Positions 42,851 through 48,414 of a stretch of DNA of 64,000 bases are shown here, one piece after another (positions within the stretch are counted from its first letter, which is position 1; each line of letters opens with the position of its first letter). The position numbers and the translations under genes were made by a program. The DNA comes from an uncultured Candidatus Saccharibacteria bacterium. GTDB taxonomy: Bacteria; Patescibacteriota; Saccharimonadia; Saccharimonadales; Saccharimonadaceae. The stretch lies in contig OY969928.1 of NCBI GenBank assembly GCA_963704675.1, positions 631,539 to 695,538 of the forward strand. The letters are read 5' to 3'. The notes below the pieces were generated by a model that was not told where the DNA came from, did not search any database, and saw only the letters and a program-made list of their open reading frames with translations.

Positions 42851-43441
42851 TTAATTACTATTTTTCTTCGCAAGTTCCACAATTTTTGGAATTCTTTCGA
42901 AATCGTCCAGTAGTGTTTGGCGCATATTGCCGTTATAAAGGGCTGCTGCCGGGTGAAACAGCGGCACAATTACTACTTTTCTCTCACCAAACTGAATCCG
43001 CTTTGGCTCACCATGAATCTGACTAATCTTCATGCCAGGCAAGAAATATTCCATGCTATGACGGCCAAGGGTCACAATAATGAGCGGCTCAATCACGTCG
43101 AGCTGTCGGATGAGAAACGGCCAAAACGCCTTTTTCTCATCTGGCAGCGGGTCACGATTGTTTGGTGGACGATACTTAACGATGTTTGTAATGTAAATAT
43201 CTTGCCGATCCAGCCCGATGCTCGCCAACATTTCGTTTAAAAACTTGCCAGCGGCACCAACAAACGGCAAGCCCTGTTCATCTTCATTCTTGCCGGGTGC
43301 TTCACCAATAAACACAATCTCGGCATTCACATTGCCATCACCCATTACTAAATTTGTCGCAGACTTGGCAAGCTCCGGACAAATATTTTGTTCCAGAATA
43401 GCTTTCTTAATTGCATCAAGCAGTGCTTGCTTTTGTTTCAT
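42851..43441 (-). CDS. uracil-DNA glycosylase, family 4
   Basis: FIGEAPGKNEDEQGLPFVGAAGKFL (GEAPG motif), ..HPAAALY.. The start is probably MKQKQALL. Confidence 0.8.
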   Translation of the reverse strand: MKQKQALLDAIKKAILEQNICPELAKSATNLVMGDGNVNAEIVFIGEAPGKNEDEQGLPFVGAAGKFLNEMLASIGLDRQDIYITNIVKYRPPNNRDPLPDEKKAFWPFLIRQLDVIEPLIIVTLGRHSMEYFLPGMKISQIHGEPKRIQFGERKVVIVPLFHPAAALYNGNMRQTLLDDFERIPKIVELAKKNSN

Positions 43442-43616
43442 TGACCCTCTAAAAGGTGTTAGGTGATACCACAAGATCGTTAAGCTGCTTAGAGTATAGC
43501 ATAGTTTACTATATTCTCCTATACGAGAATGCTCATCTAGCTAGCGCGATAACGACCAACTATACCTAACAGTGCACATATTCAATGACTTACAGAGAGT
43601 CATCGCCTGGCAAGTA

Positions 43617-43645
43617 TTGACTGATAGTTGTTCGGGTTGTATAGT
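43617..43645 (+). promoter_or_regulatory. near-consensus promoter upstream of the orphan gene 43771
   Basis: TTGACT, a 17-nt spacer, then TATAGT, in the context agtaTTGACt. Confidence 0.45.
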
Positions 43646-43710
43646 AATACAATTACAGCTGGTAGCTGCGTGGCAAGCTTCACCGATTTGGTGAAGATTT
43701 TTACGCAGCT

Positions 43711-43727
43711 TCTCGCTGTCGCACAGC
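43711..43727. repeat. left arm of the 17-bp inverted repeat bracketing ORF 43771..44322
   Basis: tctcgctgtcgcacagc is the reverse complement of 44337-44353. Each arm is itself a 5-bp stem with a 3-nt loop. Confidence 0.75.
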
Positions 43728-43770
43728 AAGTATTCGACCAGGAGCAAGGCCCGAGATAAGGAGATCACCC

Positions 43771-44322
43771 ATGCGGGTTCGATTCTACGTCAGCATGGAC
43801 AAAACCGGCTTCGAGAACGACGAAAACGACCCAGTCTACAAGATCATCCAGCGGATTCGCAACGATTTTGCCGCAAGAGAGGCAAGCTCGCACTACAGCT
43901 CAGAGCCGGTTCGCATCCAGGGCGTCGGCTTCTTCCAGAACGAGGAAGGAACGTATGCCGAGTTCGAGCACTTCTTGTTCGGCCTTCCAACTGCCATTGT
44001 CGACGAGCTCTACTTGAGCGTTCGCCGTGTCGAAATCCATGAGGAGTTTCCGCTGCCAAGCAGTGGCTTCTCGAAAGCGACCTTCACGATGCCCCAGGGG
44101 GACTACGAACACAATGGCGCCGAGGCCATCGTCTACGAAGCTCCAACTGCGGGCGGCGTATCGCGTCAGATTCGCGTTCGGGTAGTCGCTGAGACTCTCG
44201 ACAAGGCTGTCGAACTCTTCAACCTCATTCGCGAGGGCGAGGGCGAGCCGGTTCGCCACTGGATTGATCAGCCGAAGAAGAACGAGCAGAACGACGCGGT
44301 CCCCAGCGAGCAGCCGACATGA
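43771..44322 (+). CDS. orphan hypothetical protein (high-GC islet)
   Basis: 183-aa ORF with an AAGGAG RBS. No motif was recognised. Confidence 0.5.
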   Translation: MRVRFYVSMDKTGFENDENDPVYKIIQRIRNDFAAREASSHYSSEPVRIQGVGFFQNEEGTYAEFEHFLFGLPTAIVDELYLSVRRVEIHEEFPLPSSGFSKATFTMPQGDYEHNGAEAIVYEAPTAGGVSRQIRVRVVAETLDKAVELFNLIREGEGEPVRHWIDQPKKNEQNDAVPSEQPT

Positions 44323-44336
44323 CCACATAGTTTTCC

Positions 44337-44353
44337 GCTGTGCGACAGCGAGA
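44337..44353. repeat. right arm of the 17-bp inverted repeat
   Basis: gctgtgcgacagcgaga. Confidence 0.75.
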
Positions 44354-44360
44354 GCAAAAT

Positions 44361-44399
44361 GGCGGGTGACCTACGGGTTACCCGCCTGCTTTCGTTTTT
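44361..44399 (+). terminator. intrinsic terminator of ORF 43771
   Basis: ggcgggtgacc-tac-gggttacccgcc followed by tgctttcgttttt. Confidence 0.6.
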
Positions 44400-44452
44400 G
44401 ATCCTTTTCTTCTCCTATAGCTTCATGTATGACATGAAAATATAGGGGAATG

Positions 44453-44505
44453 CCCGTGCGTTCTGAAAATGTGAGAACACACGGGCCAGCCGGGGGTTGC
44501 CCGGC
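44453..44505 (-). terminator. two GC hairpins downstream of ORF 44523..45608
   Basis: cccgtgcgttct..agaacacacggg and gccggg-ggtt-gcccggc. Confidence 0.5.
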
Positions 44506-44522
44506 GAACTTGAAATTCCCTG

Positions 44523-45608
44523 TTAGCGAGCAGGAAGGTTGCGCAGTTGCGCCGCCAGAGCTTCGCCTTGGAAACCTTCGGCAGACTTCTGTTCACCTTC
44601 GATACGAATCCACCACTTGAGGTGGTCGTGTGGCAGCGCAGGCAAGAGACTGCCTTCTGCGACAGCGGCGATCAGCGCTCGCTTCCTTGCCTTCGCTTCT
44701 TCCCTGTCCTTCAACTTGGGGTTAAAAGCACTAAGAGGAATGACCACGCAAGCAGCAGCTTGCCGCTGCTCACCCTCGCCCTTGTAAGCGTAGTTGACCT
44801 TCAACTTCGGGTCAGCTTCGTTCTTCGGTGCCACGAGGCCATCAGGATACGGGATCTCCAGGGGTGCCCAGTCAATCTCCTCGTCACTTTCGGAGACAGC
44901 CGCGAAGTCCTCAAGCTTGAGATGCAAGTCAACGTCGCAGAACTCAGCGAGAGTCGTCACCTTGGCGGCCTTGAGTTTTTCTCGGTAGAACTCTTCGAGC
45001 GAAGGAACCTCCACGTACTCACCCGCACCGCGAAGCACAAGCAGCTCCAATTGCTCCAGCACGTCACGGTTGTGCGAGTGCAGACTCCACCCGCCCAACC
45101 TTTCGGCCAGAAGCTCTTCCAGGATGAGCTCCAGCGGATCGCTTATAGTGATGCGTTCAAATTCGGTGCACACCGCCTGTACCGCTTTTTTGATTGAAGC
45201 AAGCACGGTGGCATGTCTACTATACGAGTTATGGAGCCTTTCGTATGCCTTTTGGATTAGCGCATTGAGGTCGGCAGTCGGGAGTATGTTGACAAGTTTG
45301 TCTCGCTCCATCGAAAGCCGCCGCAACTCCTCTCTTGCATGGAGATTAACTAGAGCAGATGAAGCGTGTTCTAGACTAAGAATTCGCTGCCTTGATCCGC
45401 CACGCGTGGTAACATAAATGTCTCCCCGTGTCGCCGCTTTTATCTCAGGCCAAGTCAACAGTCTACCTTCAGCCTCGGGCATTAGCTCGAGGTTCGCAAA
45501 CAGATAGCCCCGACTAGTAGCATCATACTTTACCACACCGCACATCACACCATCAACGATGATGTCTTCGTCGGCGGGCATGGTGATCTGGGGCTCGGTG
45601 AAGCTCAT
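44523..45608 (-). CDS. orphan hypothetical protein (high-GC islet)
   Basis: 361-aa ORF with an AAGAGG RBS. No motif was recognised. It is convergent with ORF 43771. Confidence 0.5.
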   Translation of the reverse strand: MSFTEPQITMPADEDIIVDGVMCGVVKYDATSRGYLFANLELMPEAEGRLLTWPEIKAATRGDIYVTTRGGSRQRILSLEHASSALVNLHAREELRRLSMERDKLVNILPTADLNALIQKAYERLHNSYSRHATVLASIKKAVQAVCTEFERITISDPLELILEELLAERLGGWSLHSHNRDVLEQLELLVLRGAGEYVEVPSLEEFYREKLKAAKVTTLAEFCDVDLHLKLEDFAAVSESDEEIDWAPLEIPYPDGLVAPKNEADPKLKVNYAYKGEGEQRQAAACVVIPLSAFNPKLKDREEAKARKRALIAAVAEGSLLPALPHDHLKWWIRIEGEQKSAEGFQGEALAAQLRNLPAR

Positions 45609-45820
45609 GAGGTCGCCTCTTTCGGCAGTTGTAGGGTAATTTCAAGTTCAACCGCATATACGCGGGGATCTTTTTTAAAGCTCAAAAGAAATCTCCACGT
45701 ATATACTTGTGTAAAAATACAATTCAAATGAATCTTACATATTATAACATATGCGAATGCTAAAGTAAATTTAGAGCTATCCGTTTTACTACGAGATTAA
45801 CTTGATTTATAATCTACCAA

Positions 45821-47941
45821 TTAATCTTGTTTCGCTTCTTTCATACTAAGGTTGAGGCGACCTTGGTCGTCAATAGCAACTAATTTCACACGGACCTTAT
45901 CGCCTTCTTTCACAACATCGCTCACCTTTTCAACCCGCTGGTCAGACATTTGTGAAATGTGCACTAAGCCGTCGCGGCCAGGCATAATATTCACAAAAGC
46001 GCCGAACTCCATTAGTTTTACCACAATACCATCGTAAACTTTGCCAACTTCGGGCTCAGCCACGATCGCTTGAATCATTTGTATAGCTGCGGTAATGCTC
46101 TTGGTATCAATCGCCGAAACAGTTACCAGGCCGTCATCTTTAATATCAATTTCAGCACCGGTATCGGCGATGATCTTGTTGATCATCTCGCCGCCTTTAC
46201 CAATTACTTCGCGGATTTTCTCAGGCTTAATCATTAGTTTTTCAATACGCGGAGCGTAAGGACTTAGCTGTTCGCGCGGTGCGCTCAAGGTTTCAAGCAT
46301 GTGTTGCAAAATGTGCGCCCGGCCGGTTTTGCCCTGCATTAAGGCTTGACGCAAAATGTCCACCGGTAAACCATGCACCTTCATATCCATTTGGAGCGCT
46401 GTAATGCCCTTTTCAGTGCCAGCAACTTTGAAATCCATATCACCGGCAAAATCTTCGGCATCGGCAATATCACTCATAACATAAGGCGTGTCGCCATCCA
46501 TCATGAGGCCCATAGCAATGCCCGACACTGGAGCTTTCAATGGTACACCAGCATCCATTAGTGCTAAACAGCTCGAGCAGGCCGCAGCCATTGAGGTTGA
46601 GCCATTCTGGCTCATAATCTCAGTGACACTACGAATGGTGTACGGAAAGTCTTCAATTGATGGCAATACATTAAGTAATGCCCGTTCGGCGAGATAACCA
46701 TGACCAATCTCGCGACGACCCGCTGAACCAAGGCGGCGTACTTCGCCCACTGTATAACCAGGCGCGTTGTAATGGTGCATGTAACGCCGTTCGAAGTCGT
46801 TTTGCTCCATGGTATCTACCATCTGCGCATAGCTTAAAGGTGCGAGCGTCACAACGTTCATGCCCTGCGTAACTCCACGGGTGAATAAGCTTGAACCGTG
46901 CGTGCGTGGCAAAATACCAACTTCGCTTGAAAGCGGGCGAATTTCATCAAGCTTGCGGCCATCGGGGCGCAGGCCCTTTTCGACAATACCGCGGCGCACG
47001 TCTTTATGTAGCGCCGTAGTAAAAGCTTCGTCATATTCGCCGCGCAGCAGCTCGTATTCTTCACCAACACTCTCAGCCATGACTTCATGGAATTCACCAC
47101 GCAAAATCGTGATCATTTCATTGCGCTCTGGGTACGGACGTCGCAGATCTTCACTGAGTTTGTCGGCCATCCAAGCGTCAACAGATGTTTGAATCTCTTC
47201 ATTGGGCAATACAAGTTCATATTCAAGAGCTTCGACACCGATTTTTTCAGTCAGTTCTTTTTGCACGGCAATAGCTGGCTGGAAGGTTTCATGCGCCCAA
47301 GCAAGTGCATCAGCTACCACATCTTCGGCAACTTCTTTAGCACCAGCCTCAACCATAGTGATACCACTCTCAATACCAGCAACTACTAAATCAAGCTCAC
47401 TTTGTTCAATTTCTTCAGGGCTGGCAAACGCTTTGAACTCGCCATTTACTCGCGAAATGCGAAGCCCAGCTACTGGGCCGTCAAATGGCGCACCCGTTAA
47501 TGTCAACGCGGCGCTCGCAGCGATCATCGCTACCATATCTGGCCGGAAGTTCGGGTCCATTGAAAGCACTGTTGCGACCACCTGCACTTCTTGACGATAG
47601 CCTTTTGGAAAGAGTGGTCGAATTGGCCGGTCAATAATACGACCAATAAGAATCGCTTCGTCACTCGGGCGACCTTCACGTTTAATAAAACGTGAGCCAC
47701 TAATCTTACCGGCTGCATAAAACTTTTCTTCGTAATCAACACTGAGCGGGAAGTAATCCATACCACTAATTGGCTTGTTACCAACCATAGCCGTTCCAAG
47801 CACAACAGTGTCGCCATAGCGCACCAATACGCTCGCGGTAGTGCGAAAACCAACTCGCCCAACTTCTAGGGTAAGCGGCTTGCCGCATAACTCGACTTCA
47901 ACTTTAATAATATCTTTACCGAATGGGTTAATGGTGCCCAT
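45821..47941 (-). CDS. pnp: polynucleotide phosphorylase
   Basis: 706 aa with two RNase PH domains, KH and S1 (..GKVYDGIVVKLMEFGAFVNI..). Confidence 0.95.
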   Translation of the reverse strand: MGTINPFGKDIIKVEVELCGKPLTLEVGRVGFRTTASVLVRYGDTVVLGTAMVGNKPISGMDYFPLSVDYEEKFYAAGKISGSRFIKREGRPSDEAILIGRIIDRPIRPLFPKGYRQEVQVVATVLSMDPNFRPDMVAMIAASAALTLTGAPFDGPVAGLRISRVNGEFKAFASPEEIEQSELDLVVAGIESGITMVEAGAKEVAEDVVADALAWAHETFQPAIAVQKELTEKIGVEALEYELVLPNEEIQTSVDAWMADKLSEDLRRPYPERNEMITILRGEFHEVMAESVGEEYELLRGEYDEAFTTALHKDVRRGIVEKGLRPDGRKLDEIRPLSSEVGILPRTHGSSLFTRGVTQGMNVVTLAPLSYAQMVDTMEQNDFERRYMHHYNAPGYTVGEVRRLGSAGRREIGHGYLAERALLNVLPSIEDFPYTIRSVTEIMSQNGSTSMAAACSSCLALMDAGVPLKAPVSGIAMGLMMDGDTPYVMSDIADAEDFAGDMDFKVAGTEKGITALQMDMKVHGLPVDILRQALMQGKTGRAHILQHMLETLSAPREQLSPYAPRIEKLMIKPEKIREVIGKGGEMINKIIADTGAEIDIKDDGLVTVSAIDTKSITAAIQMIQAIVAEPEVGKVYDGIVVKLMEFGAFVNIMPGRDGLVHISQMSDQRVEKVSDVVKEGDKVRVKLVAIDDQGRLNLSMKEAKQD

Positions 47942-48082
47942 ATTTACTCCTTATTACTCGTTTATGAGCGGATAAGTAACGGGTATAACGCTTCTATTGA
48001 AAAACGTTATGTCCACCACTTACACCACTCCGTGAGCCAACGCCATTATAACGCATTTTTGAGCATCGTGATAGTGAAGGTA

Positions 48083-48111
48083 TTGACACTTTTAATCTAA
48101 CATTATATTAT
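48083..48111 (+). promoter_or_regulatory. near-consensus promoter of the WhiB-like gene
   Basis: TTGACA (48083-88), a 17-nt spacer, then TATTAT (48106-11), in the context ggtaTTGACa. Confidence 0.5.
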
Positions 48112-48159
48112 ATCTACCTGGTACACCTCAACCGGTCCCAAACCTCTGGAGGTAATGAC

Positions 48160-48414
48160 ATGGACTGGCGTTACAACAGTGCCTGCCGCGACGAGGACCC
48201 GGATCTGTTCTTTCCCGTGGGAACGAGCGGTCCGGCCATTTTGCAGACGGCGCAGGCCAAGTCGGTCTGCCACCGCTGCACCGTCGCGTCAGACTGCCTG
48301 ACCTGGGCGCTGCAGAGCGGCCAGGACAGCGGCGTCTGGGGCGGCATGAGTGAGGACGAGCGTCGCGCGCTCAAGCGGCGCAACGCGCGCGTTCGCACTC
48401 GCAGCAACGTCTGA
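48160..48414 (+). CDS. whiB: WhiB-like (Wbl) [4Fe-4S] transcription factor
   Basis: 84 aa. Cys pattern C9-x27-C37-x2-C40-x5-C46, GVWGG turn (SGVWGGMSEDER), basic tail RRNARVRTRSNV, and a GGAGG RBS. Confidence 0.85.
   Translation: MDWRYNSACRDEDPDLFFPVGTSGPAILQTAQAKSVCHRCTVASDCLTWALQSGQDSGVWGGMSEDERRALKRRNARVRTRSNV

Follow-up and report, generated by a model that had tools for sequence, protein, structure and literature searches.

Saccharibacteria and the other bacteria of the candidate phyla radiation (CPR) have minimal genomes in which most lineage-specific genes are unannotated, and the question that this locus raises is whether two such genes, lying side by side between the genes for a uracil-DNA glycosylase (UDG) superfamily protein and polynucleotide phosphorylase (pnp) in an uncultured Candidatus Saccharibacteria bacterium, were gained together and what they may do. 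The window, i.e. the whole stretch of 64,000 nucleotides that was analysed (46.1% GC), belongs to a 1.26-Mb genome contained in one contig (45.8% GC), which we label G000; G001 denotes a sister species of the same genus, and X is a provisional name coined here for the protein family to which one of the two genes belongs. An initial annotation had described two convergent open reading frames (ORFs) of 183 aa (ORF183, plus strand) and 361 aa (ORF361, minus strand) as an acquired two-gene module with a possible role in immunity, toxicity or host interaction, or of phage origin. We have re-confirmed both frames, the GC-rich island that they form within the window (57.8% for ORF183, 54.7% for ORF361) and, at the level of consensus sequences, the ribosome-binding site (RBS), promoter-like site and hairpins of each gene; the view that the two are separate transcription units rather than a single operon is also supported, ORF361 being read in the same direction as the genes for RNase J (rnj), UDG and pnp, all of them on the minus strand. 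Neither protein has any match in Pfam, PHROGs, PADLOC or NCBIfam, in keeping with the initial remark that no domain was recognisable in either. The pairing itself fares differently: with a probability of about 0.6, we consider that the 1.9-kb GC-rich stretch goes back to two gene gains, nested but unrelated to each other, in a slot of variable content within the conserved pnp-UDG-rnj backbone.

The case for two separate histories starts from the distribution of homologues. Relatives of ORF361 are found at 10 or more other loci, including the same locus in G001 and at least 6 other Saccharibacteria contigs, and a homologue of ORF183 accompanies none of them. Since the homologues do not co-occur elsewhere, the two-gene module is rejected, and what survives of that claim is that the stretch is extra and compositionally foreign relative to most relatives. 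The notion that ORF183 and ORF361 constitute one acquired functional pair, be it of the toxin/immunity, host-interaction or phage-derived kind, draws on the adjacency of the two genes, on their common GC richness and lack of known domains and on the expression signals that each possesses; it is nevertheless extremely improbable in view of their uneven distribution, of the G001 orthologue of ORF361, which lies 88 bp from UDG, of the separately bounded insertion in which ORF183 resides, and of the unequal GC content at third codon positions (GC3; 0.74 for ORF183 versus 0.60 for ORF361). As regards the individual roles that had been proposed, a toxin, immunity or defence function finds no support: the PADLOC result is null for ORF361 and its full-length relatives, and ORF183 matches neither phages nor plasmids. 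Taken as a pair, the two genes do not make up a new system.

The comparative setting explains how two unrelated genes can share one address. The genes pnp, UDG and rnj are adjacent in 20 of the 22 relatives outside the genus, with gaps mostly of 13-560 bp, so that the placement of the island as an insertion between UDG and pnp, already proposed from the single sequence, is true comparatively; the syntenic pnp homologues bear RNase_PH/KH/S1 domains. The larger pnp-UDG gaps contain ORFs unrelated to those of G000, namely a methyltransferase-like one of 245 aa (G011, L144) and a P-loop kinase-like one of ~196 aa (G003 on L147, G017 on L142). Because the three genes are mostly adjacent and the larger gaps are taken up by unrelated ORFs, the pnp-UDG spacer constitutes a slot of variable content within an order-wide conserved backbone, filled twice in G000, and X is its most recurrent occupant. 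Of the 11 contexts of X, 8 place it in the pnp-(UDG)-rnj cluster (G000, G001, G216, G099, G090, L010, L117 and L115), the metagenomic contigs with X inside the cluster being those of members P0022, P0012 and P0010; G001 has the same order as G000 (RNase J, UDG, X, pnp, then WhiB and rpsO), and G090 has X between UDG and rnj. The other three contexts, those of P0009, P0014 and G166 (the last beside groEL), are outside the cluster. X is rare all the same: six-frame profile searches of whole genomes detected it in 6 of the 301 genomes that represent the taxonomic family and in 6 of the 401 that represent the phylum. Further ORFs noted at the slot are a proline-rich one of 389 aa in the pnp-UDG spacer (G010, L151) and an extra one of 434 aa beside an X gene that carries an N-terminal J domain (G216, L025).

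ORF183 would be the younger occupant of the slot. Alignments to G001, with homologous sequence on both flanks, delimit 896 bp of extra DNA in G000 (43524-44419), whereas in G001 the UDG start and the X stop are 88 bp apart; the 10-bp direct repeat TTCTCCTATA flanks the insert in two copies in G000 and occurs as a single copy in G001, which makes it a candidate target-site duplication or tract of microhomology. Within the insert, an AT-rich portion of 190 bp that contains the promoter-like site is followed by the ORF, bracketed by the 17-nt arms of an inverted repeat, and by the terminator (Table 1); in the predicted minimum-free-energy fold of the putative transcript this repeat closes a helix around the entire coding sequence of ORF183 (z = -4.9). 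The ends of the insert lack terminal inverted repeats (end-to-end alignment score of 10 versus a shuffled mean of 12.3), no recombinase gene is present inside it, and the segment has no second copy in G000. Given that no other relative has ORF183, an insertion in G000 appears more parsimonious than a deletion in G001. The promoter, the 17-bp helix closing the 5' and 3' sides, the coding sequence and the terminator would have entered as one cassette, through illegitimate recombination or an event akin to transposition, with the 10-bp duplication as its trace. The insertion lies 82 bp upstream of the UDG start and splits this gene from the sequence that is directly upstream of it in G001; the displaced sequence includes a minus-strand promoter-like site at 44467-44439 (regions 43442-43523 and 44410-44470), and the transcription of UDG may be altered in G000.

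The composition of the two genes has to be judged against that of the genome. With a median GC3 of 0.41 in G000, ORF183 ranks in the top 2.8% and ORF361 in the top 7% of ~1100 ORFs, and some 7% of the genes of G000 have a GC3 above 0.6, that is, islets of this kind are common in the genome. The GC content of ORF183 at the three codon positions (0.62/0.38/0.73) is a coding signature and, together with the strong Shine-Dalgarno (SD) sequence, points to a real gene shaped in a moderately high-GC genome. Its product, acidic and without a hydrophobic segment as is that of ORF361, would be a small orphan protein of the cytoplasm whose gene came from a foreign source of moderately high GC content. 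No homologue other than the protein itself was retrieved in a word-indexed search of 5.8 billion proteins; none was found in phages, plasmids, viral contigs or metagenome contigs, in ten actinomycete genomes or in 300 genomes of the family, where matches with E = 0.01-0.05 are noise, and a search of the PDB returned no relative. The idea that an acidic protein encoded beside UDG might be a UDG inhibitor was considered and rejected, as the adjacency stems from the insertion and the UDG encoded here is not of family 1. ORF183 is, in short, an ordinary strain-specific orphan in a self-contained foreign cassette.

The second gene has relatives. An exhaustive phmmer search with ORF361 against 1.8 billion representative proteins yielded 20 relatives, among them the G001 orthologue (E = 4.7e-49) and 18 others with E values from 1e-10 to 7e-4, and the six-frame profile searches added five more members, such that ~25 were found in total; the family profile covers ORF361 over model positions 1-349. 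The word-indexed search retrieved only ORF361 itself when used as the query and 3 proteins with the family profile. X has no match in Pfam, NCBIfam, PHROG or PADLOC, and sequence and profile searches of the PDB gave coiled-coil or chance matches only, e.g. troponin I and M-CSF. Its members align over their full length (alignment A2) and consist, from the N- to the C-terminus, of a beta-rich module, a coiled coil, a helical module with the motif H-N..VL..L..L.IRSGG..L..FY..L and a second beta-rich module with the motif AP..IEL.GRKG..Y.V.Y.Y..DG..VAVG.V.VPL..YER...LP.LPH.I.L..EV; typical members end in a lysine/arginine-rich tail terminating in PPPW..G(R/K).R. Three architectures exist: X alone (370-420 aa); a J domain followed by X (J-X, 460-500 aa), as in G216, G099, P0010 and P0012, the last two matching PF00226 with E ~1e-21 and having the HPD motif; and a HrpA/HrpB-like DEAH helicase with a C-terminal X (~1100 aa; P0005, P0008, P0020 and G497; TIGR01967, E = 7e-93). 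X is therefore a previously undescribed but definable family with informative fusions, and ORF361 is a member of it. The N-terminal beta module also exists as a tandem repeat in another context, since in the 4080-aa protein P0004 this module (query residues 23-68) is matched in 9 separate stretches.

ORF361 would represent the older occupant of the slot, drawn from this rare family of Saccharibacteria and Patescibacteria. Its GC richness is no sign of a recent acquisition by G000, because the excess is a trait of the whole family: at all loci examined, X genes exceed their neighbours by 5-9 points in GC and by 8-24 points in GC3. The fast rate of change is likewise a trait of the family. Between G000 and G001 protein identity is 91% for PNPase, 94% for RNase J and 96% for UDG compared with 37-41% for X; the number of nonsynonymous substitutions per site (dN) is 0.59 for X and 0.025-0.062 for the neighbours, i.e. 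the X protein has evolved 10-24 times faster, and yet its dN is still below the synonymous substitutions per site (dS) of these neighbours (0.7-1.7). The family tree unites the X proteins of G000 and G001 as sisters (100/100), each at the tip of a branch of ~0.95; the median terminal branch of the whole family is 0.93.

Both copies have also been shortened. ORF361 and its G001 orthologue are devoid of the J domain (in the case of ORF361 there is no Pfam match, and the AT-rich upstream spacer of 212 bp is too short for one) and of the tail: ORF361 ends in ...QLRNLPAR, short of the basic PPPW end, and the C-terminus of the G001 protein is an unrelated read-through. An HrpA-like helicase was not found in G000. 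As the genome has no such helicase and the protein has neither J domain nor tail, the G000 copy is read as a partner-less derivative under relaxed constraint.

These same features invite the view that the slot merely tolerates neutral cargo, ORF361 being a functionless and decaying remnant of a J-X gene and ORF183 a piece of non-functional foreign DNA: the J domain and the PPPW tail are gone in both species, the G001 C-terminus reads into the terminator hairpins, X has accumulated dN at the elevated rate given above, and ORF183 lacks relatives in every resource searched. We nonetheless regard this as quite unlikely. The frames of both orthologues have stayed open for more than 360 codons despite ~1.9 substitutions per site, the dN of X does not reach the dS of its neighbours, and ORF361 retains the invariant core residues of the family (L105, R152, N180, R193, L212, L228, A248, P249, Y273 and P323 in alignment A2) as well as its conserved core motifs (H-N..VL, an IRSGG-like motif, FY..L, AP, Y.Y and LP.LPH). 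In addition, ~119 nt of non-coding DNA upstream of ORF361, containing the promoter-like site and leader, are 82% identical to G001 with identical runs of more than 20 bases, far above what is expected of neutral DNA or of synonymous sites at the dS of ~1.4 of neighbouring genes, and this in front of a protein that is only ~40% identical. The open frames and the conserved upstream DNA argue against a dead gene; on the side of ORF183, its strong SD, coding-type codon-position GC and own terminator do not fit inert DNA either. The leader, whose long hairpin (45654-45706) has a fold z of -4.3, would be a conserved regulatory or RNA element; an Rfam search of the stretch gave no match. Taken together, the loss of the J domain and tail and the strongly relaxed constraint, set against an intact frame, a conserved promoter and leader and a retained terminator, suggest that the probable role of ORF361 is that of a partner-less or regulatory form of X, or of one that is degenerating. 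A 15-nt inverted repeat that brackets ORF361 (44506-44520 and 45635-45649; 14 of 15 positions complementary) and mirrors the 17-nt repeat of ORF183 was discarded as a feature, for in G001 it is complementary at 11 of 15 positions, with one compensatory and two disruptive changes, and is probably not functional.

Table 1. Features of the slot between UDG and pnp in G000 (positions within the window; all promoter-like sites are putative).
Feature	Position	Strand	Remarks
UDG superfamily gene	42851..43441	-	PF03167, E = 1.3e-35; 96% identity to G001; backbone gene, left border of the slot
Direct repeat, left copy (10 bp, TTCTCCTATA)	43514..43523		from alignments A1 and A3 to G001
G000-only segment (886 bp), ORF183 cassette	43524..44409	+	absent from G001; single copy in the genome
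Promoter-like site of ORF183, TTGACT-17-TATAGT	43617..43645	+	consensus scan, 10/12 positions; within the insert's AT-rich left portion
Inverted repeat, left arm	43711..43727	+	perfect, 17 nt; brackets ORF183
RBS of ORF183, AAGGAG	43758-43763	+	7 nt before ATG
ORF183	43771..44322	+	acidic (pI 4.9), soluble orphan protein of 20.9 kDa
Inverted repeat, right arm	44337..44353	+	perfect, 17 nt; brackets ORF183
Intrinsic-terminator-like hairpin of ORF183	44361..44386	+	11-bp stem with 8 GC pairs, then T-run
Direct repeat, right copy (10 bp, TTCTCCTATA)	44410..44419		from alignments to G001
Terminator region of ORF361, three stacked hairpins beyond the stop	44410..44505	-	fold z = -6.9; partly conserved, 68% DNA identity to G001
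ORF361	44523..45608	-	stand-alone X member; profile match E = 4.8e-97; 37-41% identity to the syntenic G001 gene
RBS of ORF361, AAGAGG	45616-45621	-	7 nt before the start codon
Conserved non-coding leader of ORF361	45634..45769	-	includes the promoter-like site (45741-45769) and a long hairpin (45654-45706)
Promoter-like site of ORF361, TTTACT-17-TATAAT with TG	45769-45741	-	conserved in G001
pnp (polynucleotide phosphorylase)	45821..47941	-	from the translation; 91% identity to G001; backbone gene, right border of the slot

The other side of pnp is variable as well. In G001 (L006, 8623-9581, corresponding approximately to 47942-48159 of the window) two extra low-GC ORFs of 139 and 164 aa are situated between pnp and WhiB; they are absent from G000 and amount to a second indel at this locus. 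The WhiB-family gene of the window (48160-48414; PF02467, E = 9e-26; 67% GC), whose product is 87% identical to WhiB proteins of Actinophytocola and other Pseudonocardiaceae, is kept in G001 (dN 0.05, dS 0.67); this similarity is in line with a place of G000 among soil Saccharibacteria that have acquired genes resembling those of Pseudonocardiaceae.

A patchy and fast-evolving family in a variable slot might also be a conflict gene. It would then belong to an anti-phage or anti-host system or to one of mobile elements, with the helicase and J-domain fusions as its effector or sensor variants and the vicinity of pnp as an integration hotspot. Several observations are of the kind that such a role predicts: X is present in just 4 of 95 genera, its GC3 is consistently deviant, its protein sequence evolves very fast, the same spacer carries other accessory genes in other genera, the helicase cores are weakly similar to Cas3 and SngC models, and G216 and G166, two congeneric species, have X genes from different clades at different loci, a pattern that suggests either lateral movement or old paralogy. 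We hold this to be unlikely, however: stand-alone X and J-X are null in PADLOC and PHROG, X has no nuclease, toxin or other effector domain, the genes around X are housekeeping genes rather than defence islands, and the ratio of the dN of X to the dS of its neighbours is below 1. The Cas3-like matches, for their part, reflect generic similarity within helicase superfamily 2 (SF2), the cores being of the HrpA/HrpB type (E = 7e-93).

If X is not a weapon, its fusions suggest what else it could be. In Escherichia coli, the C-terminal region of HrpA (DUF3418, PF11898), which comprises the domains HB2 (residues 741-850), alpha+beta-1 (851-996), alpha+beta-2 and Hook, docks the helicase on collided ribosomes and is required for ribosome splitting; HB2 and the alpha+beta domains touch h39 and uS10, and HrpA truncated at residue 783 no longer splits ribosomes (PMC11419001). 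Our helicase fusions match the X profile twice, with the full module at the C-terminus and an extra copy of the helical module upstream (domain E of 1e-10 to 1e-6); the latter comes directly after an ALVEG motif, which in the alignment with E. coli HrpA falls at the point where HB2 begins. When an alignment of 25 X sequences was compared by hhalign with one of 7 HrpA C-terminal regions, a single colinear alignment of ~200 columns was obtained (E/P = 0.001-0.004) that spans HrpA residues 747-1030 and places the helical module of X on residues 767-804, its beta module on 'LKLRLSYQFEPG..DGVTVHIPLPLL' and the X motif 'LPHGI.L.IEV...K.IA.G.D...L' on 'VPDHLKITFRVVDDKNKKLKEGRSLQDL'. X would accordingly be a distant relative of the ribosome-contacting HB2/alpha+beta part of HrpA and would dock on an RNA-protein particle, either the ribosome or the RNA-decay machinery, where it would position a helicase or DnaK. 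On the strength of the fusions, of this weak, suggestive similarity and of the recurrent pnp/rnj address, we tentatively propose, at somewhat less than even odds, that X is a particle-docking module employed with a helicase, with DnaK through the J domain, or alone.

A good deal weighs against this proposal and the slot scenario in which it is embedded. PF11898 has no match at E <= 10 in 10 X members and does not hit the CPR helicase fusions, and a six-frame search for it in the X-bearing genomes was null, actinomycete controls scoring E = 1e-176 to 1e-233; the X profiles miss the HrpA chains in the PDB, the hhalign probability for X and HrpA is just 8-21%, and a bridging hidden Markov model (HMM) from the CPR helicases to HrpA attains P ~0.02-0.06 at the expected position. 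Single-sequence AlphaFold2 (AF2) models have predicted local distance difference test (pLDDT) scores of 40-41, unfit for fold comparison. The missing HrpA-like helicase in G000 belongs here too. Since the spacer between pnp and UDG is variable in general, the adjacency to pnp may reflect a route of gene transfer rather than a function, and fast evolution, patchy distribution and a phylogeny resembling that of horizontal gene transfer (HGT) would fit a conflict gene equally well. As to ORF183, a deletion in G001 stays an alternative to an insertion in G000, the polarity of the event resting on two genomes.

The docking proposal can be taken further, into what we regard as an improbable but specific scenario: J-X, helicase-X and stand-alone X would be forms of one portable docking module, peculiar to Patescibacteria and derived from a duplicated HrpA HB2/alpha+beta unit, that brings a DEAH helicase, DnaK or nothing to stalled ribosomes or to PNPase/RNase J, the tail-less stand-alone form of the genus of G000 serving as a competitor or regulator. 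Were it true, J-X would provide the first case in bacteria of a J-protein devoted to a ribosome or RNA-decay particle. Irrespective of that outcome, one orphan, ORF361, has become part of a definable family with fusions and a recurrent address by pnp and RNase J, from which a testable hypothesis follows about the quality control of ribosomes or RNA in CPR bacteria; and a variable slot with a recent gene gain of 0.9 kb is now documented to the base pair, which bears on how episymbionts with reduced genomes acquire genes.

Comparison with known systems helps to delimit both gains. The insert that carries ORF183 shares with non-autonomous transposable elements, e.g. miniature inverted-repeat transposable elements (MITEs) and derivatives of insertion sequences (ISs), the flanking 10-bp direct repeat; unlike them, it has no terminal inverted repeats, transposase or extra copies, and the 17-bp inverted repeat is set in from the two ends of the insert, by 187 bp and 56 bp, and has no duplication of its own. 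With phage morons and other self-contained accessory cassettes it has in common a promoter-like site and terminator of its own, a deviant GC content and a location between unrelated genes; it departs from them in that ORF183 has neither phage homologues nor a prophage context and in that the 10-bp duplication and the 17-bp inverted repeat are not moron features.

For X the parallels are those of docking proteins. Specialised J-domain proteins tether Hsp70 to a particle, as the ribosome-associated Zuotin of the eukaryotic ribosome-associated complex (RAC) does; by way of functional analogy, many X proteins likewise display an N-terminal J domain with HPD, then a putative docking domain and a basic tail, whereas beyond the J domain X is unrelated in sequence, ribosome binding by it is putative and ORF361 has no J domain. 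Relative to the HrpA C-terminal region, X differs in lacking HMMER-level similarity and a Hook domain and in adding an N-terminal beta module, a coiled coil and the PPPW tail, and ORF361 differs further in standing alone instead of being attached to a DEAH/RHA core. What links the two is the position of X C-terminal to HrpA/HrpB-like cores, the extra helical copy located where HB2 begins, after ALVEG, and, in the low-probability hhalign alignment, a colinear succession of a helical module, a beta hairpin of the form 'L.L.Y.F..DGV.V.IPL' and the motif '..P.HL.I.F.V....K...G..L..L'.

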